From IMG/VR virus record IMGVR_UViG_3300045993_000169, positions 1-55,093 of that record: DNA of 55,093 bases; one strand, written 5' to 3'. Of this stretch, positions 1 to 35,360 are shown in pieces. Origin of the DNA: a virus (lineage: Duplodnaviria; Caudoviricetes). Position numbers and translations under genes: made by a program. The notes beneath the pieces were generated by a model. That model did not search any database. It was given only the letters and a program-made list of their open reading frames with translations, and was not told the origin of the DNA. Position 1 is the first letter of the stretch. Every line of letters begins with the position of its first letter.

Positions 1-61
1 ATGCACAAGGGGGGTCTCTTTTGCGAGGCCCCCCCGCCGGTCCCAAAAATTTTATAAAAAA

Positions 62-319
62 TTAGGAAACGACTTGAGCAACCTCTTTTGCTTCAACACG
101 AAGATAAATTCCTAAAACATTTTCTTCAACAATTTCTTCAATTGCTTGCTCAATAGCAAGTGTCTGATCGGCTTCAGATAGTTCATCTGATGTCTTGACA
201 ATCCTAGCAAGGAAGGACAAGGTGTAGTACCCTTGTGCCTCATCGTATGCTCTCCACTCATTGAACTGCATGAAAGGATTGTAAGGATTGTCTTCTGTTG
301 TTAACATGTGTATAGTCAT
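62..319 (-). CDS. hypothetical phage protein (acidic)
   Basis: ORF 62..337; GAAGGAGG RBS favours the MTIHML start at 319; follows the RNAP gene. Confidence 0.7.
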   Translation of the reverse strand: MTIHMLTTEDNPYNPFMQFNEWRAYDEAQGYYTLSFLARIVKTSDELSEADQTLAIEQAIEEIVEENVLGIYLRVEAKEVAQVVS

Positions 320-323
320 GTCC

Positions 324-3056
324 TTACCCTCCTTCACTTAGTGATGTCTTCAATGTAGTAACAGACACACCCAAAGCAGAAGCAATCTCTGCCTGTGTTG
401 CACCATTCTTTGCCATTGCCCTAGCCCTTGACTGATTAGCTGTAGTCATTAGAACCTTAGCCCTTGGTGTAGCCAACTGCTTGATCTGATCTAGATCAGC
501 ATTGTCAAGGATCTTATCCAACCTATCACGACTAATAGCACCAGCCTGTATAGCAGCCCATTCACTATCTGTTAGTACTATCTTAGGCTTCTTAGCGCCT
601 GTCCTAGTACGGGCAGTCTCAAGGGCCATGTACTTCATCTTCTTCTTCTCAGAGTTCTCCATGTCCTTGTTAGAGTCTATCAAGGCTTGGATCTTGGCCC
701 CTGCTATGACCTGGGCCTGTCTTTCAAGGGGGCTGTTTCTTTGGGCGAGGATCAGTTTGGCATTGAGGGAGGCTACTTCAGTAGCATAGGCGGTCTTAGC
801 AGACTTGTTTACTTTGGTAGGGGGGGTATTAATCATCTCTAACCTAGCCATGTTGGCAAGGCCCTTCATCTTGTTAGAGTGATCAGCATAGACCCTCTCT
901 ATAGGGGTGCCTTCATGATTAGGCCCTGACAATAGGGTACGTGCATCAGTAGTCTCAACTAATGCCTTTGATTTCTGGGTGGGGTACTTAACCTTCTCTG
1001 TTACCACACCTGTTCTCTTGTTAGTGGTAGTCCTAACATAAGACTCGCCTGTTGGCACAAAGATTAAAGCACCAGTCTTGCGATCTATAGGACCGCCATC
1101 TTTTGCTGATTGGAGCTTGTATTTAGGAACATCTACCCTATGCCTAGCCCTAGAGATCAGGGTTGCAGCACCTGCATTAGCCTTGCCCTGATACTTAGTT
1201 TTGAGTTGAGCAATCCCATTGTCTACAGCAGACTGTTTGTAGTTGAGGTTATGCTTCTCAGCATCGATGACCACCATTGAATGCCGAACTGCTCGAGCAA
1301 GCTCGGTTGGCGTTGCGCCCATGATAGTCATGTCTGTAATGAGGTTAGAAACAACACCCATTTGAACGCCCTTTGTATGGACGCTCATAGGCACCATGCC
1401 TTCATAAGCAGGATACTTGTCTTTAGGGTTGAAGTTCTTCAGTCCTGCCAATGCTGGTGCAGTCTTGACACTACGACTGTTGTTTGGGATGACAAGAACT
1501 GTGTCACCATCGAAGTCTGCCCCAGAAAGGCGCTCTGCTACCTTCGAGTTGATACCAATCGCATCTGATGCAGCACCTAGAAGCTTCTTTGCATCAGGCT
1601 GCCTGTTATTGACAATCAGTTCTGGGATCTCGAAGATACCACCATGAGGAAAGCGAATTAGAGCAACTCGTTCTCCATCATTGAACTTGGGGGCATAAAC
1701 TTCGTTATCCTTCATCTTGTTTACAGGGAGAATAACATGTGTTCCCTGTCTTGGCATGGCTGCTGCTTTAAGATGTACAGCCGATGAGTCTGCTGAGTCT
1801 GCATAAGACTTAAGCAACTTGACACGAACAGCAGCATTCGTCAAGGATGATATTTCATCAAGATCAAGCGTCTTTTTCTCGAAAGTTTTGGCTAGCTGTG
1901 CCTTAGCAAACTCGGTGTTCTGTTTAGAGAGCATCTGAGAGGACAAGCTTTTTGACCATTTCTCCCATTGACCTTCATCATTGACAATGTTCATCGCAGA
2001 GCGAACGGTGTGGGGGATTTCTGCACCGTTTTCATCAAGCTTCTTAAGCTGACGAACAACAGCGCCAAATGGATTTGCCTCGTCCATCTTTCCTGTTTTT
2101 TTGTCGATCTTGATTGGCTTCATGGCATCATGCTTATCGCCAGTATCACTCTTGTTCGTGTTGAACATGAGATCTACACCTTTAGGCAGGTCATCTTTGA
2201 ACATGGCCATACCTTTAAGGTAGTGCGTACCGTCAACAGCGATACGAACCTGAGCATAGTTCTTTCCGCCTAAAGAAAGATCGTCTACATTACGACGAAC
2301 ATAGACAACACCATCAGCATCAGAGCCACCTTGTTCTGCATATCGGATCTTAACCCGACTTGATGAAACTGATATTGGAGGCTCAATTCCTGACCAAGAA
2401 AGGCCGTTGTCCTCAGTGAACTCCATAAGCGGCTTGATCTTGCCGATGTCTTTCGCAATGTCGGCATACGTAGTTCCCGGAACAGCAAGACAAGTAATCG
2501 TCGTCTTGTTTGTGGTCCCAAGCTGATCTACCTGAACCTTTGTGCGGTAGTATCCCTTTTCCTGTAGGACAGCAACGGCTTTGTCCAACTTATCTCGACT
2601 AACACCAAGAATATGGTGTTCAACGCCAGCACCAATATCGACTACACCTAAAGCATCAACTTTGTCTTTCAACATGTTCGCTGTGGACATGAGTTGATCA
2701 GCCTTGAGCTTTGTAGAAGGATCACGAAGAGCACGAACCGAAGATTCGTTAATACCCATCTGTATACCAATGGCCATGTTGCTCATACCACTGTCATGCA
2801 GTTTGTTAGCCATAGAGATATCCGCTTGCTTCTGAGCATTCTTGTAAATCGACTTCTTTGCCTGAAGCTCAGCCCTTGACATATCCATGCCTTTAGCAAT
2901 CTGAGTATCTGTTAGCCCTTGCTTGTGCATTCCCTCAACGTAGTCAAGAAAGCTCTTGTTGCGCTGAGTCTCTGTATCACCACTACCCCAAGGATAACGA
3001 CCAGACTTGTGGAGAGTGCCGATGTGGGAAAGGTAGTTCTCTTCAGAAATTATCAC
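324..3056 (-). CDS. putative single-chain two-barrel (DPBB) DNA-dependent RNA polymerase, YonO/cellular-RdRP-like, with HTH domains
   Basis: GADFDGD (ADFDGD at nt 1503-1520) preceded by LIRFPH; DG..QVR..LKG motif; HSMVVIDAEKH resembles RdRP HS.AVDFPK; HTH-like segments at both termini. Confidence 0.8.
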   Translation of the reverse strand: MIISEENYLSHIGTLHKSGRYPWGSGDTETQRNKSFLDYVEGMHKQGLTDTQIAKGMDMSRAELQAKKSIYKNAQKQADISMANKLHDSGMSNMAIGIQMGINESSVRALRDPSTKLKADQLMSTANMLKDKVDALGVVDIGAGVEHHILGVSRDKLDKAVAVLQEKGYYRTKVQVDQLGTTNKTTITCLAVPGTTYADIAKDIGKIKPLMEFTEDNGLSWSGIEPPISVSSSRVKIRYAEQGGSDADGVVYVRRNVDDLSLGGKNYAQVRIAVDGTHYLKGMAMFKDDLPKGVDLMFNTNKSDTGDKHDAMKPIKIDKKTGKMDEANPFGAVVRQLKKLDENGAEIPHTVRSAMNIVNDEGQWEKWSKSLSSQMLSKQNTEFAKAQLAKTFEKKTLDLDEISSLTNAAVRVKLLKSYADSADSSAVHLKAAAMPRQGTHVILPVNKMKDNEVYAPKFNDGERVALIRFPHGGIFEIPELIVNNRQPDAKKLLGAASDAIGINSKVAERLSGADFDGDTVLVIPNNSRSVKTAPALAGLKNFNPKDKYPAYEGMVPMSVHTKGVQMGVVSNLITDMTIMGATPTELARAVRHSMVVIDAEKHNLNYKQSAVDNGIAQLKTKYQGKANAGAATLISRARHRVDVPKYKLQSAKDGGPIDRKTGALIFVPTGESYVRTTTNKRTGVVTEKVKYPTQKSKALVETTDARTLLSGPNHEGTPIERVYADHSNKMKGLANMARLEMINTPPTKVNKSAKTAYATEVASLNAKLILAQRNSPLERQAQVIAGAKIQALIDSNKDMENSEKKKMKYMALETARTRTGAKKPKIVLTDSEWAAIQAGAISRDRLDKILDNADLDQIKQLATPRAKVLMTTANQSRARAMAKNGATQAEIASALGVSVTTLKTSLSEGG

Positions 3057-3616
3057 TGATTCAGCATCTCCATTCTAATTGCTTGAATGCGCTTGTCGAA
3101 GGTGATGATTCTATCCATGATATGAACAATGACATCAGGGTCGCCTTCATAGATCTTGATTTCATCATTCTGGTAGATCCGAAGTTCCATCTCGATCTCG
3201 AAAGGCTTAACTCGATACTCAAGACAGAATAGTGCCGCATAGACCTCTAACTGGTGTTCCGACGTTTTGGTGACACCAGTCTTTAAGTCATGAATCCGAA
3301 GTTTGCTACGATGGAAGGATATGGAGTCAGCAGTTCCAAAGCAGTTGTCTGAGTAGTACAGAACCTGCTCTGAAGCCATTCGATACCCAATCGCATCGTT
3401 GACATAGAGATGAAGAGTCTTCGGTGTCTTCGGAAGTTTGATCCCTAAGCGAATAGCCTCATGAGCAAACTCATGCAACTCAGTTCCCTTGCGAGCAGCA
3501 AGAGCCGCAATATAGACCCGATCGATCTTCTCGTCTTCGTAGTTTATCCAGTGGTGTTTAGATGCGCTTAGAAAGGCGTGCTGCCCGAGGAGATTTGAAT
3601 GCTCTTTGAAGATCAT
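3053..3616 (-). CDS. PD-(D/E)xK exonuclease, Cas4/RecB-like
   Basis: GTELH, GTAD, HDLKTG and QLxxY motifs. Confidence 0.75.
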   Translation of the reverse strand: MIFKEHSNLLGQHAFLSASKHHWINYEDEKIDRVYIAALAARKGTELHEFAHEAIRLGIKLPKTPKTLHLYVNDAIGYRMASEQVLYYSDNCFGTADSISFHRSKLRIHDLKTGVTKTSEHQLEVYAALFCLEYRVKPFEIEMELRIYQNDEIKIYEGDPDVIVHIMDRIITFDKRIQAIRMEMLNQ

Positions 3617-3878
3617 CTAACACCTCCTCTTCATTCGCAGGATAAATGAAGGCAGCGTAGGACATCTTGTCTAGCTCATAGATGTACCACTCTTGGTTTG
3701 GGCGAACCGGAGAATCTTCTTCCGCTTTCACTTCCAGCATTGCCCAACGGTCTTTCCACAATATGGTGAGATCAGGTACGCCTTGCATGTACTCCGAATC
3801 ATTCTTGAGGATGACGCAACCTTTGAACCTACGGCGAAGCTCTTTTATTAGCTGTGCTTGGTAGTCTCGTTCAAGCAT
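3558..3878 (-). CDS. VRR-NUC domain nuclease / Holliday junction resolvase-like
   Basis: ExxxQ, GVPDL and LEVK motifs. Confidence 0.8.
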   Translation of the reverse strand: MLERDYQAQLIKELRRRFKGCVILKNDSEYMQGVPDLTILWKDRWAMLEVKAEEDSPVRPNQEWYIYELDKMSYAAFIYPANEEEVLDDLQRAFKSPRAARLSKRI

Positions 3879-3935
3879 GAGAGCCTCCTATCCAAAAATA
3901 GAGGAAGAGTAAGCAGGCTTGCTTTCCCTCCATCT

Positions 3936-3960
3936 ATTATAGTCCGCGAATTTCGTGCGT
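3936..3960 (-). promoter_or_regulatory. variant copy of phage promoter motif upstream of the nuclease-RNAP operon
   Basis: ACGCAC-N13-TATAAT, same spacing as the other copies. Confidence 0.55.
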
Positions 3961-3968
3961 GATAATAC

Positions 3969-4475
3969 TTATTCTTCAACAACCCGGAACTCCTGTCCTG
4001 TAGGGAACACATAGGTCCTGTTGAGTGTTGCTATTGCAATCTCCCTGTCGAGCAAACCATACTTGATGGCCGCTTCCCACGAAGTCTCGAAGTGCTCATC
4101 AGTGTGAATCTCAAATATGGGGATGGTGAATCCACGTAGGTCATTGAGGAACTGCTTGTGGTACTTGATTGCAAACCAACGCGGACGCCACATCAAATTG
4201 ATTGCTCTGTTGTCACCTCTTACTCCATTGACGTTGATGGGTGTGTTGAACCTTTCGTTTGCTGGTGGCTCGAGGAAGGCATGAGCGACGATAGGAGCAA
4301 CAGAAAGCGTGACCTGTCGTTTCAGTGTTTCGTGTATCATCCCGATCTTGTATGCGCCAGACTGATTCTCTGACGGATGCATGACTCGCCCTGTGTCCTC
4401 ATTCCGAACAATCCCCATATCACTCACTGAGTAGTTGGGGAAGCCCAAATCTTCTAGGGTCACTTTACGTTCCAT
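3969..4475 (-). CDS. NUMOD4/HNH-like endonuclease, probably with degenerate HNH site
   Basis: YSVSDMGIVRN (NUMOD4-like); VAHAF..INVNGVRGDNRAINLMW lacks the usual His; GAAAGGAG RBS before 4475. Confidence 0.6.
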   Translation of the reverse strand: MERKVTLEDLGFPNYSVSDMGIVRNEDTGRVMHPSENQSGAYKIGMIHETLKRQVTLSVAPIVAHAFLEPPANERFNTPINVNGVRGDNRAINLMWRPRWFAIKYHKQFLNDLRGFTIPIFEIHTDEHFETSWEAAIKYGLLDREIAIATLNRTYVFPTGQEFRVVEE

Positions 4476-4493
4476 GGTGCTCCTTTCCATCAC

Positions 4494-4821
4494 TTTAAGT
4501 ATTTAAGTATTAACTCCATTATTTCGTCAAAAGAAAAACTTCATATACAGACCTTAATACTTATTCCCTATATGCATTATAAGTATTAAAGAAGAGATTC
4601 TGAGAAAGTATTAGGGCTGTTTTTGACAGATTTGGCAGAGGCGCTTTTTGGTATAATGCCTGCTCAGAGGCTTATAGCCCCTTTTTTGCTCTGCCAAATC
4701 TGAAATGGTTTTTTTTCGACCCCATTATACGTAGTCTAGAAACCAGTATTAATACGTAAAAAGAGAGGCTCGGGAAAGACCTCTCTTCAAAACCATTTCA
4801 GATTTGTCCTCAGATTTGTCC
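4494..4821. other. AT-rich intergenic region with nested inverted repeats, candidate replication origin
   Basis: IRs 4554-4564/4579-4589, 4627-4640/4689-4702, 4695-4712/4789-4806; CAGATTTG core 4 times. Confidence 0.5.
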
Positions 4822-5988
4822 TCAGAAGGTGACTCCGAAGCTACTTTCATTGAAGTTCTTCTTTCCCGACAAGGACTTTGTGATCGCCTGATCTATCACA
4901 GAGTCAGACTTTAATACGTAATAATACAGGTTTGTATACTGTGTATTTAGCCTGTCTATGCGTCCGTGGGCTTGATGCCAGTTCTTGTAAGAATATGGCA
5001 GACTATAGAACACCATAGCGTCAGTCTCTACACAGTTCCACCCCTCACTTCCGGCAACATACTGGACAATGTACACCCAAGAATCTGTGTCGGGAATATC
5101 CTCATGCTTGTGGCCACTCCATTCAGCTAGGGGGACTTCCCCAGCAAGAGTGAGAAGTTGGTCGCGCTCTACGTTTAGGTTGTAGAACACAATCAACTTC
5201 GGATGCTTTTCCAAGAGGCTACGGACGGCTTGGACTCTCGACCAATCAGAGTTGACTACCTTCCGCATTAGGTGGAACATCTCAGCAACATCCTTGATAG
5301 GACGCTCTTCATAGACATGCCATCTTTGTTTGAGGACTTGGTTGAACTTCTCAACATCATAGTTCACATGGACATCTTCTTCATGCCTGAGGGTTTGTCT
5401 CATGTATGGCATTTCGACGAGGATGTCGTTCCGAAGCCTGACCAACCTTCCGACATTGACGTAACGATCGACCTTAGGGAATTTTGAATAGTTGTTGAAG
5501 ATAACGTGCTCGCGCTTGAACTCTGTCCGATTCTTATAAAAGCCATTAGCGACGAATACGGGGATGTAGTCGAGCCAATTATCTCCGGGGGTTGCGCTAA
5601 GAAGAATCCAGCGATTGCGCTTTGCAATCTTGATAAAGGCTTTGGCCCAAGCTCCTGAGCCCACAAGTCTTTGTTCATCAAAGATGAAGAACGCATCAAC
5701 TACCTCCGCGTAGTTTTGGATGTTGTTCCAACTGTCGATAGTCAACACCCCAGCAACAGTTGCGTCCTTAGTCTTTCCCACCCCATATGCAGCGAACTCC
5801 CCCTGCCAGTCAAGAGAGTCACGCTTCTTAGCCGTTGTGATGACATACACATCTTTAGGCGCTTCTGCCTTCATGTAGTATGCCACAGCAGTCATCGATT
5901 TACCTGTGCCGACACCGCCCCACAATATGGAGCCGTTCCGCAACTTCTCGACAGCCACTTGCTGATGTGGATACAGCTCCAATTTCAT
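4822..5988 (-). CDS. SF2 (SNF2/DEAD-like) helicase
   Basis: GVGTGKS, FDEQR, SATP and QAHGRIDR motifs. Confidence 0.9.
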
Positions 5989-5990
5989 GG

Positions 5991-6332
5991 CTACTCCTTT
6001 CTATTGAGTTCCGGCCATGCAGAACTATCTATCGATATGAAGACACCTATTAGATCGGCAGACTCAATGACCATTGAATCTTCATTAATCACCAGATTGT
6101 TTAATGTGACATGCACATTTAGACTCGTCAAGTTGTACACGGTGCTAATTTCTAATGAGATCTCTCCAGTTTCCTCATCACGTCCGAACAAACCAGCCAT
6201 ACCAATCCGTTCGGTATAACCGCCGTTCCCAACAGGTATGGTGTCTTTCCTCATCGAGATAGCACCCGGAAGAATAAGACGTCCGTCTAGGGTTTGCTTA
6301 CCCTCAATAGCTACAACTCTTCGTGTCATCAC
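5991..6332 (-). CDS. hypothetical protein
   Basis: ORF with AGGAGGAG RBS, tightly packed. Confidence 0.65.
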
Positions 6333-6341
6333 TCCTCCTTT

Positions 6342-6656
6342 CTAAATTCGGATTTCTCCTTGTGGACCTTCATTACGCCAATCTTCAAATGGGATGAAAC
6401 GACGTCCAGCTTTTCGTTCTTCATCTCGATAGTCTCGCCATGTGTTCATATCGACATCATATTGATTGATTGGAACCGAAGACTTTGGAGTATGGACCCA
6501 GACGTTCTCGTCGATGTCGTACTCGTAGTTCTTGCCGACTCTCTTATCGAGAGTCGTGACGTCGGTTCCACAACTGACACACGCGACGATCAGTTCGATA
6601 TTGTCTGTGATTCCAGCAGTGATAATGTTGTGTCGGCAGGTTTCAGGATTTGTCAC
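6342..6656 (-). CDS. hypothetical protein, CxH/CxxC zinc-ribbon-like
   Basis: CRH..CVSC; overlaps upstream stop. Confidence 0.6.
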   Translation of the reverse strand: MTNPETCRHNIITAGITDNIELIVACVSCGTDVTTLDKRVGKNYEYDIDENVWVHTPKSSVPINQYDVDMNTWRDYRDEERKAGRRFIPFEDWRNEGPQGEIRI

Positions 6657-6967
6657 AGGTTCACCTCATGCTCTGGTTCTGGATCGGGTCCGAACCATTC
6701 GTATGGCTCTTTGGTGTTGTATCTGTTCCGACGAAGAATGGAGTTCGCAGCATCGAGTTCTTGCTCATACACCTCGACGTTCTGGACATCCTTCTGGAAC
6801 AGTTTGAGTGGATCTGGTCGATGAGGCCTATCCATTGCACCCTTACGAAGCTTAGGCTTTTGTTTCTTGATCAAGACCTCTACGACCCGTTCCCATTGCC
6901 AGTCATCAACCTTCTCGCCGAGTAGGCCTTCTAGATCCTCACGAGTCATTTGTATTTTGTGGTCCAC
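6653..6967 (-). CDS. hypothetical protein
   Basis: ORF in coupled minus-strand string. Confidence 0.6.
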   Translation of the reverse strand: MDHKIQMTREDLEGLLGEKVDDWQWERVVEVLIKKQKPKLRKGAMDRPHRPDPLKLFQKDVQNVEVYEQELDAANSILRRNRYNTKEPYEWFGPDPEPEHEVNL

Positions 6968-7226
6968 GTTTTTTCATCCCCTTCTCTTTGTCTATGAGTT
7001 CCTTACGTCGAGCAGAGTGCTTCCACTCAAAGCTTCGACCCATACGATCGTTGATCAGATCTAGTTCTTTGACGTCCCATGGGTCAATCTCGAGACAAGG
7101 AAAGCGAGAAGTCTTGTTGACACGATGCTTACTCGGTGCACCGTGGTTGTCACAAGTCCATGTTCGCCCCACAAGAGAATATGAGCAGTTGATTGTTGCT
7201 CCAAGCTTTACCGCCATAACGGCCAC
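6939..7226 (-). CDS. hypothetical protein
   Basis: ORF in coupled string; Cys/His residues. Confidence 0.55.
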   Translation of the reverse strand: MAVMAVKLGATINCSYSLVGRTWTCDNHGAPSKHRVNKTSRFPCLEIDPWDVKELDLINDRMGRSFEWKHSARRKELIDKEKGMKKRGPQNTNDS

Positions 7227-7435
7227 CTGTGCTCTCGTCTTTGTTTAAGCAATGTGTCGAAGTGTATCATTGACCGTTCACGCTGATCTTTAGCTGCGAA
7301 CTGCTCAACAATTTGGTTGTATCTGACTTCGATTTCCAGTCTCAGTTTTTCAACGTCACTGACGACTTTCTTTTTAGCTGCGCGTCGCTTGATGTAATCG
7401 GATCTCTGTTTACTGCTCATCACTCCGCCCCTCAA
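7208..7435 (-). CDS. hypothetical protein
   Basis: ORF in coupled string; start may be 7420. Confidence 0.55.
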   Translation of the reverse strand: MRGGVMSSKQRSDYIKRRAAKKKVVSDVEKLRLEIEVRYNQIVEQFAAKDQRERSMIHFDTLLKQRREHRWPLWR

Positions 7436-7625
7436 TCAAACGCTTGATGTTTGCAAGAGCCTCTTCAAACGTATCCTCATACCCATAGATCTTCCAGTCA
7501 TATGGGTCGTCTGGATTCTCGCGCGTCTGTATAGCCCATCTGCCACCCGGAGTCTGTCGAAGACCGTACTTCCCATCCAGAGTCTTGTACAAACCGAGTT
7601 CATTCATCTTGAGTCCGATACGCAT
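7410..7625 (-). CDS. hypothetical protein
   Basis: AAGGGGAG RBS. Confidence 0.65.
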   Translation of the reverse strand: MRIGLKMNELGLYKTLDGKYGLRQTPGGRWAIQTRENPDDPYDWKIYGYEDTFEEALANIKRLIEGRSDEQ

Positions 7626-7634
7626 GATCTCCCC

Positions 7635-7838
7635 TTAAATTGGTAGTTCGTCTCCGAGTCGACATATCTCTGCAGTCAAAGCATCGAGAATCGGTTGGTC
7701 AACGATCTCTTGCTTTTGGTAACCATGCCTAACACCGATCAAATATGCCCGACGGTTTGTTGGGGTATCACTGATCCCCACCGAAAGCATGACCGGTATA
7801 ACGTGTTCGTAGATCTTCTGGATCACATCTTTTTCCAT
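7635..7838 (-). CDS. hypothetical protein
   Basis: GGGGGAG RBS. Confidence 0.65.
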   Translation of the reverse strand: MEKDVIQKIYEHVIPVMLSVGISDTPTNRRAYLIGVRHGYQKQEIVDQPILDALTAEICRLGDELPI

Positions 7839-7846
7839 TACTCCCC

Positions 7847-8029
7847 CTACTGACTTAGACGCTTCTGGATGGCTTCGATGGACATCTTGATGTCGGCAAC
7901 ACGCTTGGCTGCAGATTCAGCCTTAGGCTCTTCGATAGCCAATTCGATACGAAGCTTCTTGAGTGTATGCGCATCGATCGCTGAACGAAGCGAGGACGTT
8001 AGGTCTTTGGTTGTGGACGAAATGCTCAT
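7847..8029 (-). CDS. hypothetical protein
   Basis: GGAGG RBS. Confidence 0.65.
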   Translation of the reverse strand: MSISSTTKDLTSSLRSAIDAHTLKKLRIELAIEEPKAESAAKRVADIKMSIEAIQKRLSQ

Positions 8030-8053
8030 AATTCCTCCAGTGTTAAAAATGGC

Positions 8054-8087
8054 AAAACCTAAAGCCCTTGTGTTAAGGGCCGTAGGT
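8054..8087 (-). terminator. cassette-type intrinsic terminator
   Basis: ACCUA-CG-GCCCUU/AAGGGC-UU-UAGGU followed by UUU. Confidence 0.7.
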
Positions 8088-8094
8088 CTGAAGA

Positions 8095-8358
8095 CTACTT
8101 CTTGTAGTAGTGTTGAGCAATGTCGTAGAATGCAAATTGCATCTTGCGGTATTCGTTGCGTTCTTTTCCACTGATTGAACTGTCATTCACCTTTGCGTTC
8201 ACTCGAGCAGCGTCAGCTTTCCATGCCTCTACGGTTCCGTATTTTGCGGAAGCCATATGGCCGTTGAGCATAAGGTGGTCGGTGATCTTCTTGGAGAATG
8301 CGATCGCAGTGAAACTAGCGGCAATAAGTGCGTAAGCAACAATCTTGTCTGGTTTCAT
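8095..8358 (-). CDS. cassette gene, small membrane protein
   Basis: GAAAGG RBS, N-terminal hydrophobic helix; flanked by promoter and terminator. Confidence 0.7.
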   Translation of the reverse strand: MKPDKIVAYALIAASFTAIAFSKKITDHLMLNGHMASAKYGTVEAWKADAARVNAKVNDSSISGKERNEYRKMQFAFYDIAQHYYKK

Positions 8359-8383
8359 GCCAATACCTTTCGTAGGGGTCTTC

Positions 8384-8408
8384 ATTATAGGCAAGGTTTT
8401 TCCTACGA
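8384..8408 (-). promoter_or_regulatory. phage promoter motif
   Basis: TCGTAG-N13-TATAATGA. Confidence 0.75.
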
Positions 8409-8415
8409 GTTTGAC

Positions 8416-8447
8416 AAAACTAAAGGGTCGGTTAAGACCCCCCAGTT
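8416..8447 (-). terminator. cassette-type terminator
   Basis: GGGUC/GACCC hairpin followed by UUUAGUUUU. Confidence 0.6.
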
Positions 8448-8464
8448 CCTACGCCAGAAGCGTA

Positions 8465-8674
8465 TTACTCCTCGGCTTTGTCGGTGTTTACCTTGATGAT
8501 CTGATCCTTGTCGAGCGTGAGGATCATTTCGCTACTGAACCTCGTCCGGACGGGAGACCAGAGCGAGATTGTCGCTTCATCGAAGTGAGTGACCACTTGG
8601 GTAATACGAAACCATGCGCCACCGATCTTGAGGTAGTCGCCAGCAACAACATTTTTTGCACACTTGTGAGTCAT
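8465..8674 (-). CDS. hypothetical protein
   Basis: AAAGGA RBS. Confidence 0.65.
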   Translation of the reverse strand: MTHKCAKNVVAGDYLKIGGAWFRITQVVTHFDEATISLWSPVRTRFSSEMILTLDKDQIIKVNTDKAEE

Positions 8675-8711
8675 GTGGTTCCTTTACAATTAGTTGGGTT
8701 GACAAAAAGGC

Positions 8712-8747
8712 AAGACCTAAAGCCCCGGTTAGGGGGTCCTAGATCTT
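8712..8747 (-). terminator. cassette-type terminator
   Basis: + strand AAGACCTAAAGCCCC..GGGG..TAGATCTT hairpin. Confidence 0.65.
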
Positions 8748-8754
8748 GTTGAGA

Positions 8755-9042
8755 CTACTTCCTCACAATTTCTTGTGCGGCATCGGCGGCGACGGTCAGG
8801 TAAGTTCCATCGCTCAAGGCGTAGATGAAGTTCCCGGCTTTGGTCTGGTCATTGATCCATCCGACGATCTCGTCAGCGTGCTCGTTCCATGCTGCTACGT
8901 CGACGTTATACTGTTTGTTGGTATAGACGACGACGGCAACGAAGGCGGCAACGCTTCCGGCGATGATGGAGGCGGCAATGATGTCCTCAGAGTGGTTACT
9001 CATCCAGCTCTTGAGCTTCTGGCTCTTGGTTGGGGTGGTCAT
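8755..9042 (-). CDS. cassette gene, single-TM membrane protein
   Basis: hydrophobic IIAASIIAGSVAAFVAVVVY; GAAAGG RBS. Confidence 0.7.
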   Translation of the reverse strand: MTTPTKSQKLKSWMSNHSEDIIAASIIAGSVAAFVAVVVYTNKQYNVDVAAWNEHADEIVGWINDQTKAGNFIYALSDGTYLTVAADAAQEIVRK

Positions 9043-9079
9043 TTCGATTTCCTTTCAATTGGTCTGTGTGAAGGGTCTC

Positions 9080-9104
9080 ATTATAGGGGAGGATTTTCCT
9101 GCGA
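9080..9104 (-). promoter_or_regulatory. phage promoter motif
   Basis: TCGCAG-N13-TATAATGAGA. Confidence 0.8.
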
Positions 9105-9269
9105 CTCCAGATATGCGAGCGTCTTGAGCTCTTCGATCCTACATAGAGCACAGACGTCGATTCTTTCCCCATCAACAGTTGCACAGTCTTTGATATCAAG
9201 GATCTTGAAGCAGAGACAACACATGAACTTCTTCGGGTTGTAGTCAGCCCATTGTGTAGGATATGGCAC
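9081..9269 (-). CDS. small zinc-finger protein
   Basis: CCLC..CALC; its stop codon lies within the promoter TATAAT. Confidence 0.6.
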   Translation of the reverse strand: MPYPTQWADYNPKKFMCCLCFKILDIKDCATVDGERIDVCALCRIEELKTLAYLESQENPPL

Positions 9270-9493
9270 TACTCCTCCTTAGGCTCTTCTATGCAGTAGA
9301 GTCCGTCTTCGGGATTCAGAGCGAAAGACTTCATTGTCATGGTTACTTTGACTCCAGTAGAAAAGCCTTCCGCAATATCTTCTGTGTTGAAGAGAAGATC
9401 GCTCGTCTTGTAGAAAACGATCTTTTGAGTCTTACCAGTGCCAAGCTGTTCGACAGTGATAACGATTTTCTGGTATGGAACTTGATCGTCCAT
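9269..9493 (-). CDS. hypothetical protein
   Basis: AAGGAGG RBS, coupled. Confidence 0.65.
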   Translation of the reverse strand: MDDQVPYQKIVITVEQLGTGKTQKIVFYKTSDLLFNTEDIAEGFSTGVKVTMTMKSFALNPEDGLYCIEEPKEE

Positions 9494-9729
9494 CAGTTAC
9501 TCCTCCTTGGCGGCGCCCACTTTGGGTCGTACATTGTTGCAGCAGCTTTTGATGGACACATGAATGATCCTGTGCAACGAAGTCCTGTGGTCTGACTCTT
9601 GTGCTTACGAATCATTCCGTCGCTATTCCGTACGGCGATGTTCTTCCCACACTCACAGCAATAGCCAAACATTGTGCTTGGCAAAGCAGTTCGATTCACC
9701 TTTGGCGTTGGTGATTTAGCAAGCCTCAT
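9493..9729 (-). CDS. small zinc-finger protein
   Basis: CxxC..H..CxGS pattern. Confidence 0.65.
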   Translation of the reverse strand: MRLAKSPTPKVNRTALPSTMFGYCCECGKNIAVRNSDGMIRKHKSQTTGLRCTGSFMCPSKAAATMYDPKWAPPRRSN

Positions 9730-9869
9730 TTAGTTTCCCTTTTTGAAAATTGTCCTACGCGGTAAAAATTGGATTAGCCATATGTGTGGGCTGCTGTTTC
9801 AAACCAGTAACCATTCAACCAACGGTTCCTACACAGCATAGGTGTATAGTTGGCACCTCATAGATATGG

Positions 9870-10103
9870 CTAGCTCTTCGGCGACAAGTCAGTAACACGC
9901 TTGTCAACGAAGTCGATCACGATCTGGATCTCAGAACAGGTTGTCTCAAATTTTGCATCTTCGGTCGTAACCGTGTCTGCGTGCCTCAGGTTCTCGATCC
10001 GAACTGCCTCTGCGTGCCGAGCTCTCTCGATGTTAAGCAAGCGATTCGCCTCGTTCTTAGTCTCTTGGAGTGATTCGATCATAGATATGGTTTCTTCATC
10101 CAT
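9870..10103 (-). CDS. hypothetical coiled-coil protein
   Basis: AGAGG RBS before MDEET; resembles 10338..10571. Confidence 0.6.
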   Translation of the reverse strand: MDEETISMIESLQETKNEANRLLNIERARHAEAVRIENLRHADTVTTEDAKFETTCSEIQIVIDFVDKRVTDLSPKS

Positions 10104-16132: not shown

Positions 16133-16407
16133 ATCAACCTCTGAGAACGGACAACCTCGACGAGATTGTCATGAGTCCGCTGGGCCTCTTCAGACATGCG
16201 CATGAGCGTGGTCTTCAGAGTCTTCACGGTGTTCTTGATGTCGTTGAAAGCGATCCGCAACTCCGGGTCGAGTCGAGAACTGGACGTGAACTGCGTGAGG
16301 TAGTCGATAGCCATGCCAGCCTCGAGCTCGAGCTCACGAGTCGAACTCGGCTTCGGAGGAACGACGATCTGGGTTGGGGGAACAGCAGGTGCGTTCTGTT
16401 CAGTCAT
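16129..16407 (-). CDS. hypothetical protein
   Basis: AAGGAG RBS before MTEQN. Confidence 0.65.
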   Translation of the reverse strand: MTEQNAPAVPPTQIVVPPKPSSTRELELEAGMAIDYLTQFTSSSRLDPELRIAFNDIKNTVKTLKTTLMRMSEEAQRTHDNLVEVVRSQRLM

Positions 16408-16681
16408 TTGGAACTCCTTGATATTTGGCGGTGAGTTGGGCGATGCCGTGGTCAACTGCAGACTGCTTGTAGTCGAGATTGTGCTTCTCGGAGCCGAGAA
16501 CAACCTGCGAGTGTCGGATAGCACGAGAAAGCTCTGCCTGCTTGGCACCATTAATCATCATGGCCCCGATAAGATCCGAGATTGCTTTCATCTGATCATG
16601 ATATGCCTCAGTTGAGACAGGAGTCATACCCTCATACGCAGGATATGACAGCAGTGGATCGAAGCCGTTCAAACTTGTCAT
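16400..16681 (-). CDS. stand-alone paralog of an RNA polymerase subdomain
   Basis: GAGGAGG RBS; 51/86 ungapped identities to about aa 538-623 of the 910-aa protein. Confidence 0.8.
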   Translation of the reverse strand: MTSLNGFDPLLSYPAYEGMTPVSTEAYHDQMKAISDLIGAMMINGAKQAELSRAIRHSQVVLGSEKHNLDYKQSAVDHGIAQLTAKYQGVPND

Positions 16682-16691
16682 GCGAACCTCC

Positions 16692-16805
16692 TCAATTGTG
16701 TGGATCACAGTGGCAGTGACAGTGCTCACTACCGCAACGAATTTTTGGGTGAGTTGTTTCCCGACAAAGGCAAACGAGTGGCGTGAGAACTGGTTCATCA
16801 GCCAT
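16692..16805 (-). CDS. Cys/His-rich microprotein (37 aa, not in ORF track)
   Basis: MADEPVLTPLVCLCRETTHPKIRCGSEHCHCHCDPHN; GAGGAGG RBS. Confidence 0.6.
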   Translation of the reverse strand: MADEPVLTPLVCLCRETTHPKIRCGSEHCHCHCDPHN

Positions 16806-24383: not shown

Positions 24384-24408
24384 AATTTTCGTCCTCAATT
24401 CAAAAGAG

Positions 24409-24442
24409 AAAACCTAAAGCCCGGGTTAGGGGCTGTCGGTTT
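24409..24442 (-). terminator. cassette-type terminator
   Basis: + strand AAAACCTAAAGCCC..GGGCT..GGTTT. Confidence 0.7.
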
Positions 24443-24453
24443 GAGTTTGTATG

Positions 24454-24717: not shown

Positions 24718-24740
24718 GATGTTCCTTCCATAGGGGTCTC

Positions 24741-24765
24741 ATTATAGGGGGCGTAATTCTTGCGT
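24741..24765 (-). promoter_or_regulatory. phage promoter motif
   Basis: ACGCAA-N13-TATAATGAGA. Confidence 0.75.
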
Positions 24766-24880
24766 GAAAGAGGGCGCATGTTTCGGGGAAGCCTCGGCTG
24801 TCGTTTAAAGTTCGCATCCGGAATAAGGGCGAGACCCTTACAAAAGGACCCTTTGCGAACTCCCCCATCACGAATATAGA

Positions 24881-25459: not shown

Positions 25460-25480
25460 TGGTGTATCTCCTAGCTTGGT

Positions 25481-25603: not shown

Positions 25604-25614
25604 GTCAGAACCCT

Positions 25615-25746: not shown

Positions 25747-25755
25747 GATACCTTC

Positions 25756-26169: not shown

Positions 26170-26171
26170 TA

Positions 26172-26866: not shown

Positions 26867-26868
26867 AA

Positions 26869-28777: not shown

Positions 28778-28805
28778 GGTGGTACCTTTCTGGTTGATGG
28801 GTCTC

Positions 28806-28830
28806 ATTATAGACCCGGTATTTCTTGCGA
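28806..28830 (-). promoter_or_regulatory. phage promoter motif
   Basis: TCGCAA-N13-TATAATGAGA. Confidence 0.8.
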
Positions 28831-28836
28831 GGTGGA

Positions 28837-31108: not shown

Positions 31109-31208
31109 AAAAAAATGAGAACCTATGACTACATCTAGTAGGACGTGTTCGTTGCAGTAACGGACAACGTCAGACTCATTGCGGTAACGGGCCCATAGGG
31201 TTCTCATT
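31109..31208 (-). ncRNA. candidate promoter-driven small RNA with two CCGUUACY loops
   Basis: terminal IR AATGAGAACC(C)TATG followed by U7; 15-nt internal repeat. Confidence 0.6.
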
Positions 31209-31230
31209 ATAGGGGGTGACTTTCTTGCGA
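31206..31230 (-). promoter_or_regulatory. phage promoter motif
   Basis: TCGCAA-N13-TATAATGAGA. Confidence 0.8.
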
Positions 31231-31261
31231 GGTCAAAAATGAAACCACATACATTGCTCGC

Positions 31262-31371: not shown

Positions 31372-31464
31372 ATAATGAGAGAGAAATCTGATATGGTTCG
31401 GTGTCGTAGTGTCACGTCTCCGAGTGGTGCCGTAGTGTCACGGCTCCGATTTCTCTCTCATTAT
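31372..31464 (-). ncRNA. candidate small RNA with twin hairpins closed by a 17-bp IR
   Basis: IR 31372-31388/31448-31464; 24-nt repeats 31400-31423 and 31426-31449. Confidence 0.6.
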
Positions 31465-31484
31465 AGGGGGTGAAATTCTCGCGA
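31460..31484 (-). promoter_or_regulatory. phage promoter motif
   Basis: TCGCGA-N13-TATAATGAGA. Confidence 0.8.
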
Positions 31485-31486
31485 GG

Positions 31487-31882
31487 TTAAACGGTCCCCA
31501 ATCCGATGATCTCGTAATGAAGACCTTGAAGATGATCGGTATGCCCATTCAGATGCTTTGACATTACCGTCACAGCGTTGCCGGTCTCTTCCGCACAATC
31601 TTTGACTGTCTCCCAAATTTGATTCGTCTCAAGACACTTGACGAACTTATGGGCATACCCACCAAGATTCACATTGTTCGAGACTGTTATGACCGGTGCT
31701 ATAACGGGTGCTATAACAGGCGCGATGACAGGAGCAACCGTGTTAACGATCTGGGTTGAAGTCTGATTAAACTTCACGAAAAGCAAAGTCCCAGCGACGG
31801 TAACTGCAGCAGTGACACCGATCGCAATGTAGACGTTCTTGTTCTCTTGGAAATGCGTCTTGATCTTGTCACGCTGGGCCAT
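31487..31882 (-). CDS. membrane-anchored protein with NUMOD1-like DNA-binding domain
   Basis: TM helix, (APVI)x4 linker, VKCLETNQIWETVKDCAE; start uncertain. Confidence 0.6.
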   Translation of the reverse strand: MAQRDKIKTHFQENKNVYIAIGVTAAVTVAGTLLFVKFNQTSTQIVNTVAPVIAPVIAPVIAPVITVSNNVNLGGYAHKFVKCLETNQIWETVKDCAEETGNAVTVMSKHLNGHTDHLQGLHYEIIGLGTV

Positions 31883-31925: not shown

Positions 31926-32064
31926 AAAAAAATGAGATCGAGGTAAACGCTCCAACTAAAAGCGTTTCGTTAACTAGCTGTTTGTACCTTGCTAGCACAT
32001 CAGGTAGGATTCGAACCTACACATTAGTGTCTTGATCTCCGGGTTTGCACCAGAGCTCTCTCTC
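31926..32064 (-). ncRNA. candidate structured small RNA containing a tRNA T-arm
   Basis: GUAGG-UUCGAAU-CCUAC at 32004-32020, further hairpins, closing stem followed by U7. Confidence 0.6.
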
Positions 32065-32089
32065 ATTATAGGACGAGTAATTCCTGCGA
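32065..32089 (-). promoter_or_regulatory. phage promoter motif
   Basis: TCGCAG-N13-TATAATGAGA. Confidence 0.8.
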
Positions 32090-32389
32090 GGGATAGCGAA
32101 TCATGAAGGCTGGTTTACACTTTCCGCGCTTTGAAAAACCAAACTTCTCGTAGAGTTCCTCAAGTTGAGTATCGTTCAATGTAGTTTGTATTGGGTGGCC
32201 ATACCGCTGAGCAGAGAGCGTAAGTGTAAAACCGTGCTTATCAGCATACTGAATGACCTCGTCTAAAACAGCATTCGCTTGCCCCTGATGCCTAACAGGA
32301 GACCACAGACTCGACACAGAATATAGATTAGGTTCGATGTAGATGAGTCTGACTGAAGCTTGACCGTTCTTAAACTCTATGGGTTTCAT
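32066..32389 (-). CDS. GNAT-family acetyltransferase
   Basis: RHQGQA motif A, LYEKFGF. Confidence 0.75.
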   Translation of the reverse strand: MKPIEFKNGQASVRLIYIEPNLYSVSSLWSPVRHQGQANAVLDEVIQYADKHGFTLTLSAQRYGHPIQTTLNDTQLEELYEKFGFSKRGKCKPAFMIRYPSQELLVL

Positions 32390-32630: not shown

Positions 32631-32661
32631 TTCAATGCCTTTCGTAGGGCGTATGGGTCTC

Positions 32662-32686
32662 ATTATAGGGCATGTTTTTCCTACGA
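32662..32686 (-). promoter_or_regulatory. phage promoter motif
   Basis: TCGTAG-N13-TATAATGAGA. Confidence 0.8.
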
Positions 32687-32693
32687 ATATGGC

Positions 32694-32914: not shown

Positions 32915-32944
32915 GGTCTTCTCCTTGTGGTGGTGAATGGTCTC

Positions 32945-32969
32945 ATTAGAGGACATGAAAAACTCGCGA
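32945..32969 (-). promoter_or_regulatory. phage promoter motif
   Basis: TCGCGA-N13-TCTAATGAGA. Confidence 0.8.
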
Positions 32970-32973
32970 AGTC

Positions 32974-33157: not shown

Positions 33158-33185
33158 GGTCTTCTCCTTTAATGGATGTGATCTC

Positions 33186-33210
33186 ATTAAAGGGCAGGTA
33201 AAACCTGCGA
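33186..33210 (-). promoter_or_regulatory. phage promoter motif
   Basis: TCGCAG-N13-TTTAATGAGA. Confidence 0.8.
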
Positions 33211-33214
33211 GGGC

Positions 33215-33461: not shown

Positions 33462-33495
33462 GGGGAAATTCCTTTCGGTTGTGAATCATGGTCTC

Positions 33496-33520
33496 ATTAG
33501 AGGGCAGGAATATGCTGCGA
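33496..33520 (-). promoter_or_regulatory. phage promoter motif
   Basis: TCGCAG-N13-TCTAATGAGA. Confidence 0.8.
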
Positions 33521-33523
33521 AGG

Positions 33524-33840: not shown

Positions 33841-33867
33841 GGTACTGTCCTTTGTTAGTAGGGGTTC

Positions 33868-33892
33868 ATTATAGGGCATGAAAATCCTGCGA
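33868..33892 (-). promoter_or_regulatory. phage promoter motif
   Basis: TCGCAG-N13-TATAATGA. Confidence 0.8.
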
Positions 33893-33896
33893 AGCC

Positions 33897-34188: not shown

Positions 34189-34216
34189 GTCTGTTCCTTT
34201 CTTGGGGGTTGGTCTC

Positions 34217-34241
34217 ATTAGAGGGGGTGAATATGCTGCGA
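34217..34241 (-). promoter_or_regulatory. phage promoter motif
   Basis: TCGCAG-N13-TCTAATGAGA. Confidence 0.8.
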
Positions 34242-34245
34242 AGGC

Positions 34246-34524: not shown

Positions 34525-34551
34525 GGGAATTCCTTCCTTGTAGGGGGTCTC

Positions 34552-34576
34552 ATTATAGGGAAGGAAAACCCTGCGA
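34552..34576 (-). promoter_or_regulatory. phage promoter motif
   Basis: TCGCAG-N13-TATAATGAGA. Confidence 0.8.
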
Positions 34577-34580
34577 AGGC

Positions 34581-34801: not shown

Positions 34802-34828
34802 GATGTTTCCTTTCGGTCGATGGGTCTC

Positions 34829-34853
34829 ATTAAAGGGCAGGTAAAACCTGCGA
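34829..34853 (-). promoter_or_regulatory. phage promoter motif
   Basis: TCGCAG-N13-TTTAATGAGA. Confidence 0.8.
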
Positions 34854-34935
34854 CTTCGACCCAAAAGTTCCTCCGCGGGATTTTTTGGATTGCAAATTTT
34901 GAGAGGCCTTGTAAAAGAAACGACCCACAAAAATA

Positions 34936-35294: not shown

Positions 35295-35321
35295 GCTTAC
35301 TCCTTAATAGTAGGGGGTCTC

Positions 35322-35346
35322 ATTATAGGCGAGGTTTTACTCGCGA
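35322..35346 (-). promoter_or_regulatory. phage promoter motif
   Basis: TCGCGA-N13-TATAATGAGA. Confidence 0.8.
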
Positions 35347-35360
35347 CCCTACGCATAAGG

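Follow-up and report, generated by a model that had tools for sequence, protein, structure and literature searches.

Single-chain RNA polymerases (RNAPs) of the two-barrel superfamily, such as YonO of phage SPbeta, are viewed as models for the ancestor of all cellular RNA polymerases. YonO is described as a processive DNA-dependent RNAP that transcribes the SPbeta late operon from one start site (PMC5467207). That paper leaves to future work both the promoter of YonO and the question of whether extra factors are needed, and how such enzymes find promoters is still open. Here we describe a gene for a predicted polymerase of this kind in the IMG/VR virus record IMGVR_UViG_3300045993_000169 (the window, that is the whole 55,093-base stretch analysed), together with 16 promoter-like sites that all lie on the same strand as the gene. 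The source phage is uncultured, has 49% G+C and comes from wetland metagenomes; the record is 93% complete (CheckV).

Several related enzymes have been described. QDE-1, a cellular-type RNA-dependent RNA polymerase (RdRP), is reported to have both DNA- and RNA-templated activity (PMC9508822), and the RNAPs of P23-45 and crAss phages are reported to be two-barrel enzymes as well (bioRxiv 10.1101/2022.12.01.518664). Ruprich-Robert and Thuriaux (PMC2919709) list eight residues as invariant in all two-barrel RNAPs (four Asp, Arg, Lys, Arg, Pro), which in QDE-1 are D709, R738, K743, R962, P964, D1007, D1009 and D1011. The same 2010 paper names the protein of Lactococcus phage 1706 as one of five YonO-like two-barrel polymerase families. 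A preprint (bioRxiv 10.1101/842583) describes for this family helix-turn-helix (HTH) domains at both ends, a DxDGD loop and an HHpred match to the Pfam RdRP family PF05183 (95.7%, 286 columns), and suggests RNA polymerase activity.

The gene in the window belongs to this family. A preliminary description of it, made from the sequence alone, implied a novel enzyme; with the family already in print (PMC2919709; bioRxiv 10.1101/842583), the gene is a further member of a predicted family and no discovery in itself. What is new here is the set of 16 one-strand promoter-like sites and the related sites in other phages that bear the RNAP. In the main texts describing the family, supplements aside, we found no mention of promoters, of a terminal element or of virion delivery. 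The window thereby adds a concrete candidate enzyme-promoter pair and a delivery hypothesis, both testable in culturable relatives.

Conserved motifs and predicted architecture of the polymerase

The open reading frame (ORF) at 324..3056 on the minus strand encodes 910 amino acids from a GTG start, which overlaps the stop of the upstream Cas4-type exonuclease gene by 4 bases. Its product matches PHROG 4291, 'RNA-dependent RNA polymerase', nearly end to end (E 0, 1259.8 bits, residues 3-908 against positions 6-907 of the 909-position profile). The ORF was recovered at exactly the positions given in the preliminary description, and every motif string quoted there is present: AQVRI (residues 268-272) and LKG (280-282) with D248-G249 upstream, LIRFPH (466-471, window 1644-1661), RLSGADFDGD (509-518, window 1503-1532) and ELARAVRHSMVVIDAEKH (585-602, window 1251-1304).

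We aligned the protein with relatives 42-52% identical to it. All 67 sequences keep D248, G249, Q269, R271, K281, G282, R468, P470, H471, D514, D516, G517, D518, D598 and K601, and about 50 further core positions are invariant besides the eight catalytic-site residues. These eight (D248, R271, K281, R468, P470, D514, D516 and D518) match the published pattern of two-barrel RNAPs (PMC2919709). The description of the protein as phage-encoded and single-chain, with two-barrel signature residues in the right order and spacing, is thus borne out. R468 and D514 are 46 residues apart, compared to 45 in QDE-1 (R962-D1007) and 43 in YonO (R492-D535), while R271 and K281 are 10 apart compared to 5 in both. 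D248 precedes R271 by 23 residues; it is assigned as the fourth Asp by order only, since the alignment to YonO D249 is offset.

Next, we compared the family with an alignment of 25 YonO homologues using hhalign. This gave a single match with R.PH and DxDGD in register (E 0.02, probability 2.4%). With trimmed cores and permissive extension, the blocks R..KG, R.PH, DxDGD, G..SN.IT and ID..K were colinear (E 0.0073, probability 5%), and only in this run did R271 and K281-G282 align with YonO R266 and K271-G272. A comparison with the single YonO sequence gave nothing useful (probability 1.2%). Judged by these alignments, the kinship with YonO appears real in the motifs and very distant. YonO shares with the window protein its phage origin, its single chain (about 840-910 residues) and the order of the five blocks. 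However, it has no Pfam match, hence no HTH match, at E <= 0.1, and its alignment ends in four invariant cysteines.

QDE-1 and the cellular RdRPs (PF05183) have the same eight active-site residues in the same order. The window protein itself stays below the PF05183 cut-off (14.5 against 23.8 bits, E 0.015, at the DxDGD loop). PF05183 matches 40 of 53 family members around this loop at E <= 0.1 (best 8.7e-5), all of them below the cut-off. On these profile scores the family would be a distant relative of PF05183 and no formal Pfam member; the HTHs and the phage setting point to DNA templates. A PDB sequence search with the whole protein found no match, and with the core alone one irrelevant match. 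The family profile found HTH-type chains and, over the stretch with the DxDGD loop, 8h2n_A (E 0.19). The latter is the tape-measure RNAP of P23-45 and the sole RNAP among the sub-threshold PDB sequence matches.

The C-terminal HTH (residues 875-903) passes the Pfam cut-offs for HTH_23 (25.8 against 24.6 bits) and HTH_7 (25.1 against 23.8), while Sigma70_r4/r4_2 reaches 22.7 bits against a cut-off of 25.7 over residues 885-907. Across the family at E <= 0.1, HTH_23 is found in 53 of 53 members and Sigma70_r4_2 in 51 (best 1.1e-12). Near the N-terminus, residues 72-109 match PHROG 3855, 'HTH DNA binding protein' (E 1.2e-7), and sigma-factor and other HTH chains give sub-threshold profile matches over residues 31-129. 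Thus, of the HTHs announced for both ends, the C-terminal one is firmly recovered and the N-terminal pair is recovered more weakly.

An AlphaFold2 model built on the 67-row alignment (mean predicted local distance difference test score, pLDDT, 86; predicted template modelling score 0.77) begins with a poorly defined peptide (residues 1-33), followed by helices (36-136; in the HTH region 36-45, 50-56, 61-88, 93-100 and 104-111), a helix-plus-hairpin unit (145-202) and a low-confidence linker (212-223). A strand-rich module of 7 strands (235-360) bears D248, R271 and K281. Two long helices (381-428) connect it to a second strand-rich module (438-524; 6 strands and two short helices), which bears R468 and holds DFDGD in the loop preceding its last strand. 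The G..SN.IT and ID..K blocks are found on two 20-residue helices (559-602), and a small beta domain (640-697) leads to a C-terminal region of helices with the HTH at its end. Residues 225-640 or so form the catalytic core, which lies between the N- and C-terminal modules and is the best-predicted part (pLDDT 90-97). In the model this layout is as expected of a two-barrel polymerase, the double-psi topology itself being putative. The N-terminal module would start with the short invariant peptide and continue with two HTH units and one unit resembling a winged helix, and the C-terminal helical module would end in a sigma-region-4-like HTH.

Taken together, the alignments and the model support well the identification of a predicted two-barrel-type RNA polymerase with built-in HTH domains. 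The best explanation of the gene product is a single-chain RNAP of the two-barrel superfamily, on the YonO and cellular-RdRP-like branch, within the PHROG 4291 family.

Relatives are numerous. Among 1.84 billion cluster representatives, searched without a profile, 2027 match at E <= 0.001 and 856 at E <= 1e-30. In a phage collection, 250 of 50,697 records contain a relative (249 full-length), with Arthrobacter (95), Gordonia (55), Streptomyces (54) and Lactococcus (13) as hosts, among others. The closest match in the collection is Streptomyces phage Bilo (58% identity), and the best 40 of the 250 records span 39-58%. The window copy is accordingly a new, fairly distant member of a family with full-length homology to 1706 orf75 and to the 'HTH domain-containing protein' of actinobacteriophage clusters BI, AM, AU, DJ, EL and CC. 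HTHs at both termini and the DxDGD loop are common to these homologues and the window protein. The gene is the penultimate one at the right genome end in 39 of the 40 matches listed, where it stops a few hundred bases from the end of the record. Among the same 40, annotations read HTH or DNA-binding protein in 26, hypothetical protein in 8, RNA-dependent RNA polymerase in 5 and structural protein in 1. It had been anticipated that automated annotation would see only an HTH protein, and for most of these matches it did.

This commonest annotation could be taken at face value: the polymerase core would be vestigial and the HTHs would act as a DNA-binding regulator or, like a terminase small subunit, as a packaging factor that binds the cohesive ends (cos). 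Residues 747-903 weakly match PHROG 309, 'terminase small subunit' (E 5.7e-5), and the Terminase_5 HTH family matches 28 of 53 members. The gene adjoins cos, the terminal element there bears the same TCGCA box as the sites described below, and Bilo has no annotated terminase small subunit. However, the eight catalytic and about 50 core positions are kept in sequences so diverged from the query, which is unexpected of a dead enzyme, and the core is the most confidently modelled part of the protein. We consider a vestigial core very improbable.

Promoter-like sites in the window and in related phages

A repeat search of the window uncovered a family of ~36-nt elements composed, in gene-strand orientation, of TCGCA(G), 14 nt, a TATAAT-like hexamer and GAGACC. 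A weight matrix made from the 16 sites finds 16 on the gene strand and 0 on the other; the best score in 20 shuffled sequences is 2.9 compared to a threshold of 12. The core 10-mer with one mismatch allowed occurs 17 times (3.4 expected), a count reached in 0 of 100 shuffles.

The sites are not scattered. Twelve lie within 4.1 kb directly after the tail and lysis genes, each before a small ORF, and the remaining four precede the replication genes and the helicase/nuclease/polymerase block. The structural module at 35.7-55 kb has no site within it or ahead of it. Thirteen of the 16 are followed, 29-43 nt further on, by the start of a small ORF that has a ribosome-binding site. Hairpins with T-rich tails stand ~47 nt upstream of several sites, giving terminator-promoter cassettes. 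We also considered these hairpins as N4-like promoter hairpins and rejected this, as they look like ordinary terminators (stem and T-rich tail). No second conserved motif class was seen in the repeat search of the window.

The sites do not resemble standard sigma-70 promoters in full. With hexamers required 16-18 nt apart, a single site of the 16 passes, and TG extensions are absent from all of them. Sites of the sigma-70 type are not enriched in positions 1-10000 (13 found, 13.3 expected). In positions 24000-36000, which hold 14 of the 16 phage sites, we counted 2 such sites compared to 9.5 +/- 3.2 in shuffles.

RNAP-bearing phages from five host genera in two phyla (Streptomyces, Gordonia, Arthrobacter, Bifidobacterium and Lactococcus) have related sites, and each of the seven genomes examined contains 5 to 16 of them. 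Ten near-identical copies are present in Gordonia phage Gravy, 7 copies in Arthrobacter phage Mudcat, and 5 each in Bilo and Bifidobacterium phage BitterVaud1. Lactococcus phage P162 has ~10 copies with the same hexamer, the same preceding bases and GA(A/G)A after it, and phage 1706 has 10-11 copies of a TATAGT variant. A matrix trained on the window, Gravy and Bilo only recovers 7 sites in Mudcat, 5 in BitterVaud1, 9 in P162 and 1 in 1706; over the seven genomes it gives 58 matches on the gene strand and 1 on the other. In the five actinobacterial-type genomes, CGC occupies the constant positions -18..-16 relative to the hexamer in 41 of 43 sites, the upstream box being 14 nt away from it. 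In every one of the seven phages, the series of sites starts directly after the tail and lysis genes. One site stands directly upstream of the nuclease-RNAP block in Mudcat, and weakly so in Bilo and Gravy.

We also asked how often motif and enzyme go together. Among IMG/VR records with at least 2 exact copies of the motif 14-mer, 12 of 21 encode the enzyme, including 5 of the 5 that are at least 90% complete; the 9 multi-copy records without the RNAP gene are 8-61% complete. Among single-copy records of at least 35 kb, the enzyme is encoded by 14 of 26 and by 9 of the 13 that are at least 90% complete. The base rate is the 250 in 50,697 phage records given above. A literature text search with the motif strings returned no relevant paper among the matches listed, and the word 'promoter' was not found in survey papers on Arthrobacter, Gordonia and Microbacterium phages.

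Because the conserved stretch is long, the 14-nt spacing is fixed and both are kept in hosts of two phyla, the reader of the motif is likely to be phage-encoded, and the HTH-bearing polymerase is the obvious candidate. We lean towards a sigma-independent phage transcriptase that uses the 16 sites, a reading that we consider reasonably probable. The enzyme would be the phage's own DNA-dependent transcriptase and would need no sigma factor. Its HTH domains would read the TCGCA box 14 nt upstream of the A+T-rich, TATAAT-like element, and transcription would start at or directly after the conserved GAGACC. The sixteen gene-strand sites would then serve as promoters of the small early genes, of the replication block and of the operon to which the polymerase gene itself belongs. 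That the enzyme is DNA-dependent and that its HTHs replace a sigma factor had been proposed from its sequence; a conserved, non-sigma-70 promoter-like motif with an upstream box adds indirect support. What the data show are the features of the sequence, how they are conserved, and the motif and where it occurs, while enzyme activity, template, delivery and the identity of the polymerase acting at the sites are inferred.

The distribution of the sites can also be explained by an active two-barrel RNAP that works as YonO does. It would be made mid-infection from host-read promoters and would transcribe the late (structural) genes only, the 16 sites being strong early/middle promoters read by the host sigma-70-type holoenzyme. 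The phage enzyme would then have a promoter of its own at some other place, for instance close to where the cos ends join ahead of the head genes. Most sites have a hexamer that fits the -10 consensus perfectly, and YonO is reported to serve a late operon from its one start site (PMC5467207). As the structural module has no site, the late genes need another promoter or read-through across cos; the RNAP gene is penultimate before cos and stands directly upstream of the head genes once the ends join. No virion delivery would be required. Nevertheless, a -35-like hexamer at 16-18 nt is present in 1 of 16 sites only, and a T run takes its place in the Lactococcus versions. About 35 nt, including the spacer and post-hexamer bases, are conserved across two phyla with differing sigma factors and -35 needs, and the repeat search of the window showed no second conserved motif class. 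YonO also differs in having one start site for late genes, its promoter being undefined in the published account (PMC5467207), compared to 16 candidate sites before early/middle genes here. We regard a late-gene enzyme of this kind as rather unlikely.

Two predicted RNA features accompany the sites. Four of the terminator-like hairpins (in 32996-34602, minus strand) have a common 11-nt loop containing CATATT, and their stems show compensatory changes (CAGC/GCTG, CCGC/GCGG, CCAC/GTGG); such a conserved loop is unusual for plain intrinsic terminators. After site 11, the stretch 31214-31459 (minus strand) has no convincing ORF and folds at -74.9 kcal/mol (z = -4.27, 0 of 200 shuffles as good). 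The fold includes a long stem that closes the structure, a pair of similar small hairpins and three copies of a ~30-nt hairpin. The stretch has no Rfam match; a non-coding RNA of the phage or an array of repeats that bind protein are two possible readings.

Possible virion delivery and the right DNA end

The RNAP gene lies behind the same type of site as the early genes. If the transcriptase proposed above reads these sites, its first molecules therefore probably come with the virion, which is the weakest step of the proposal. Three observations hint at such carriage: a database label, a fused relative and the N-terminal peptide. The GenBank record of phage 1706 labels the homologue, orf75, 'structural protein', as it does eight other proteins, while homology-based calls in that record are marked 'putative'; the ReqiPoco6 record repeats the label. 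Among metagenomic relatives, P0022 (1789 residues) consists of a portal protein (Phage_portal, E 2.9e-29; PHROG 12) fused to the polymerase core, without the terminal HTH regions. P0030 and P0271 are long forms that have linker or core in common with P0022; all are singletons. Overall, the fused relatives (P0011, P0021, P0022, P0030, P0271, P0272 and P0273) carry a 2H phosphoesterase in two cases, a portal protein in one, DUF5906 in one and extensions without a Pfam match in three. Fusions of the portal type lack both terminal HTH regions.

The invariant N-terminal peptide, which is of low confidence or unstructured in the model, resembles DUF7211. A profile of 8 DUF7211 copies matches 12 of 67 polymerase N-termini at E <= 0.01, compared to 0 of 67 shuffled ones. 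DUF7211 itself (PF23847) is a 25-residue motif that starts two head-module proteins of the window (52936-54615 and 52541-52939, minus strand; E 3.9e-16 and 5.2e-8). The first of these, of 559 residues, is an internal duplication with a second motif copy near residue 285. A literature text search found no paper mentioning DUF7211.

A 40-bp right-terminal element (a G run, a TCGCA box, a C run and TGCAT) is common to eight phage genomes across two phyla and is followed by a 9-10-nt 3' overhang (overhang sequences of P162 and 1706: PMC4110766). In gene orientation, the window stops exactly at TGCAT, where the overhang begins in its relatives, so that position 1, give or take the overhang, is where the virion DNA physically ends on the right. 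The presence of the TCGCA box both in the promoter-like sites and at the DNA end suggests that the same HTH may read both.

These observations would fit a more far-reaching form of the transcriptase proposal, which we put forward tentatively and regard as possible while somewhat doubtful. The enzyme would be a self-sufficient, virion-carried transcriptase whose sigma-4-like HTH or HTHs read the TCGCA box of the 16 promoters and of the 40-bp right-end element, and it would be packaged on the DNA end that is packaged last and ejected first. Loading would occur through the DUF7211-like N-terminal peptide, and the enzyme would enter the cell with the right DNA end. The early programme, perhaps the whole programme, would then run without host RNA polymerase.

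In such a working mode, that is delivery with the DNA, early genes and phage-specific promoters, and in this mode only, the enzyme would resemble the N4 virion RNAP (vRNAP), the crAss-like RNAP and the tape-measure-fused RNAP of Thermus phage P23-45. The N4 enzyme belongs to a different, T7-like fold family. The window enzyme is also much smaller than these virion RNAPs, and its own possible carriage in the virion draws on a database label and one fusion protein.

The fusion with DUF5906, a nucleoside triphosphatase (NTPase) of the primase-helicase kind, brings up another role, in which the enzyme is no transcriptase. Instead, it would supply replication or recombination with RNA primers or other short RNAs, or would use RNA as its template like the cellular RdRPs and QDE-1, in company with the neighbouring helicase and nucleases. 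The gene ends a replication-recombination block (helicase, HNH, VRR-NUC and Cas4-type exonuclease), RdRP is the nearest Pfam family, and QDE-1 is reported to take DNA as well as RNA templates (PMC9508822). On the other side, the phage already has a 1251-residue primase-polymerase (PHROG 4210, E 0), and YonO is described as a processive DNA-dependent RNAP (PMC5467207). A motif in many copies of one orientation, and an enzyme with three or more predicted domains for sequence-specific DNA binding, suit promoter recognition better than priming. We judge a priming or RNA-copying role improbable.

A number of points weigh against a phage transcriptase that reads the 16 sites and arrives with the virion. 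As for the enzyme, the hhalign probability to YonO is 2-5%, the match to PF05183 is below threshold, no solved structure is matched by sequence except 8h2n_A at E 0.19, and our literature search found no enzyme assay or other biochemical work on any family member. YonO, among the single-chain two-barrel RNAPs of bacteria or phages that we came across the only one with biochemical tests, is reported to serve late and not early genes (PMC5467207). As for the sites, the CGC box is missing in the Lactococcus phages (0 of 10 sites in P162, 1 of 11 in 1706). Motif and enzyme both mark one phage lineage, and their co-occurrence is silent on which polymerase reads the motif. TATAAT is the universal -10 element of bacterial sigma-70, and actinobacterial promoters often do without a -35 element, so the host enzyme could use these sites. 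As for delivery, the polymerase gene is preceded by the class of site that the early genes have, so that the cycle could begin only with virion-borne enzyme or with recognition by the host. The virion hint from 1706 is a GenBank label of unconfirmed basis, joined by a singleton metagenomic fusion, while another long form is fused to the replication-type NTPase DUF5906 and two carry an N-terminal 2H phosphoesterase.

The family is nonetheless well placed for experiments: it is large, occurs in phages of harmless hosts that are easily grown, has DNA-binding domains built into the enzyme and comes with a candidate promoter of ~35 nt. For enzymes whose promoter finding is still open according to the YonO paper (PMC5467207), enzyme and template together would provide a system that can be tested as it stands and that might serve as a compact orthogonal transcription tool. 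Should the enzyme be virion-carried, a large siphovirus group would join the N4-like and crAss-like phages in bringing its own transcription machinery. Such a system would also show in minimal form how a two-barrel polymerase of ancestral type recognises promoters, and it would be one conserved across phages of two bacterial phyla.

Feature coordinates and neighbouring genes

Table 1. Position, strand and supporting evidence of the features discussed, in window coordinates.
Feature	Position	Strand	Evidence
Right-terminal element (G run, TCGCA box, C run, TGCAT)	1..40	.	genome-end comparison
Small last gene, 81-91 aa, PHROG 4303	62..337	-	always adjoins RNAP gene
RNA polymerase gene (predicted)	324..3056	-	PHROG 4291 full-length match, conserved residues, AlphaFold model
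C-terminal HTH, residues 875-903, sigma region 4 / resolvase type	348..434	-	Pfam, family scan
Two long helices after second module: M566-G567..N571-L572..D575, D598..K601	1251..1361	-	alignment, hhalign, model
DFDGD metal-binding loop (D514, D516, D518)	1503..1517	-	Pfam, alignment, hhalign
R468-F-P470-H471, second beta module	1644..1655	-	alignment, hhalign
First beta module block D248-G249...Q269.R271...K281-G282, active-site basic residues	2211..2315	-	alignment, hhalign, model
N-terminal helical DNA-binding region, two HTH-like units, residues 38-112	2721..2945	-	PHROG 3855, profile matches, model
N-terminal short motif, residues 9-26	2979..3032	-	H11, G13, S18, G19, R20, G24 invariant; weakly DUF7211-like
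Site 16, promoter-like, last upstream of RNAP gene	8376..8411	-	repeat search, matrix
Site 15, promoter-like, upstream of block ending with helicase, nucleases, RNAP gene	9072..9107	-	repeat search, matrix
Site 14, promoter-like, sole one passing the sigma-70 two-hexamer rule	24733..24768	-	repeat search, matrix
Site 13, promoter-like	28798..28833	-	repeat search, matrix
Site 12, promoter-like, long leader	31198..31233	-	repeat search, matrix
Site 11, promoter-like, then structured, apparently non-coding stretch	31452..31487	-	repeat search, matrix, folding
Site 10, promoter-like, long leader	32057..32092	-	repeat search, matrix
Site 9, promoter-like	32654..32689	-	repeat search, matrix
Site 8, promoter-like	32937..32972	-	repeat search, matrix
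Site 7, promoter-like	33178..33213	-	repeat search, matrix
Site 6, promoter-like	33488..33523	-	repeat search, matrix
Site 5, promoter-like	33860..33895	-	repeat search, matrix
Site 4, promoter-like	34209..34244	-	repeat search, matrix
Site 3, promoter-like	34544..34579	-	repeat search, matrix
Site 2, promoter-like	34821..34856	-	repeat search, matrix
Site 1 (TCGCA box, 14 nt, TATAAT-like hexamer, GAGACC), promoter-like	35314..35349	-	repeat search, matrix

The minus strand carries nearly all genes of the window, whose products include a portal protein, a capsid-protease fusion, minor tail proteins, a primase-polymerase and a helicase; an HNH endonuclease, a VRR-NUC-like endonuclease and the Cas4-type exonuclease are encoded near the RNAP gene. 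Scans for tRNAs and for Rfam families gave 0 matches each in the window, and no RNA run is listed among the 4 sequencing runs that contain the stretch.

The small last gene follows the RNAP gene in every relative examined (Bilo, P162, 1706, Gravy, Mudcat, ReqiPoco6 and BitterVaud1). Its product is kept better than the polymerase, with 63-79% identity among the 120 matches listed of 240, and has no assigned family or function beyond PHROG 4303. A complex prediction with the RNAP returned 'no answer' (score 0.00), which is no evidence either way.

The 1251-residue protein (17427-21182, minus strand) joins primase/helicase-type and DNA-polymerase-type regions in one chain, with primase-family matches at residues 117-428; the annotations of Bilo and Gravy call the same type of fusion 'DNA primase/polymerase'.

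A partial second copy of the polymerase is also present. In a 132-residue ORF at 16400-16798 (minus strand), residues 40-131 are paralogous to RNAP residues 536-627 (57% identity, E 4e-32), the region directly after the DFDGD loop. K601 is retained there, the invariant D598 is replaced by G, and the ORF matches PHROG 4291 (E 4.5e-25). Its matches in the phage collection (256 places in 250 records) are nearly all full-length RNAP genes, and a free-standing fragment of this kind seems rare; a different partial second copy occurs in another IMG/VR record (G046).

Finally, the hexamer CATATT, seen above in the hairpin loops, is strongly biased in its orientation. In the window it occurs 56 times on the gene strand and 3 times on the other, with about 13-15 expected on each. 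The counts are 59 and 0 in Gravy, 77 and 7 in BitterVaud1, and 6 and 0 in Bilo, while the Lactococcus phages and Mudcat have no such bias. Codon usage was rejected as the source of the excess, as the motif occurs in all three reading frames. This points to a polar signal at the DNA level, a candidate for a priming, Chi-like or packaging-related role.

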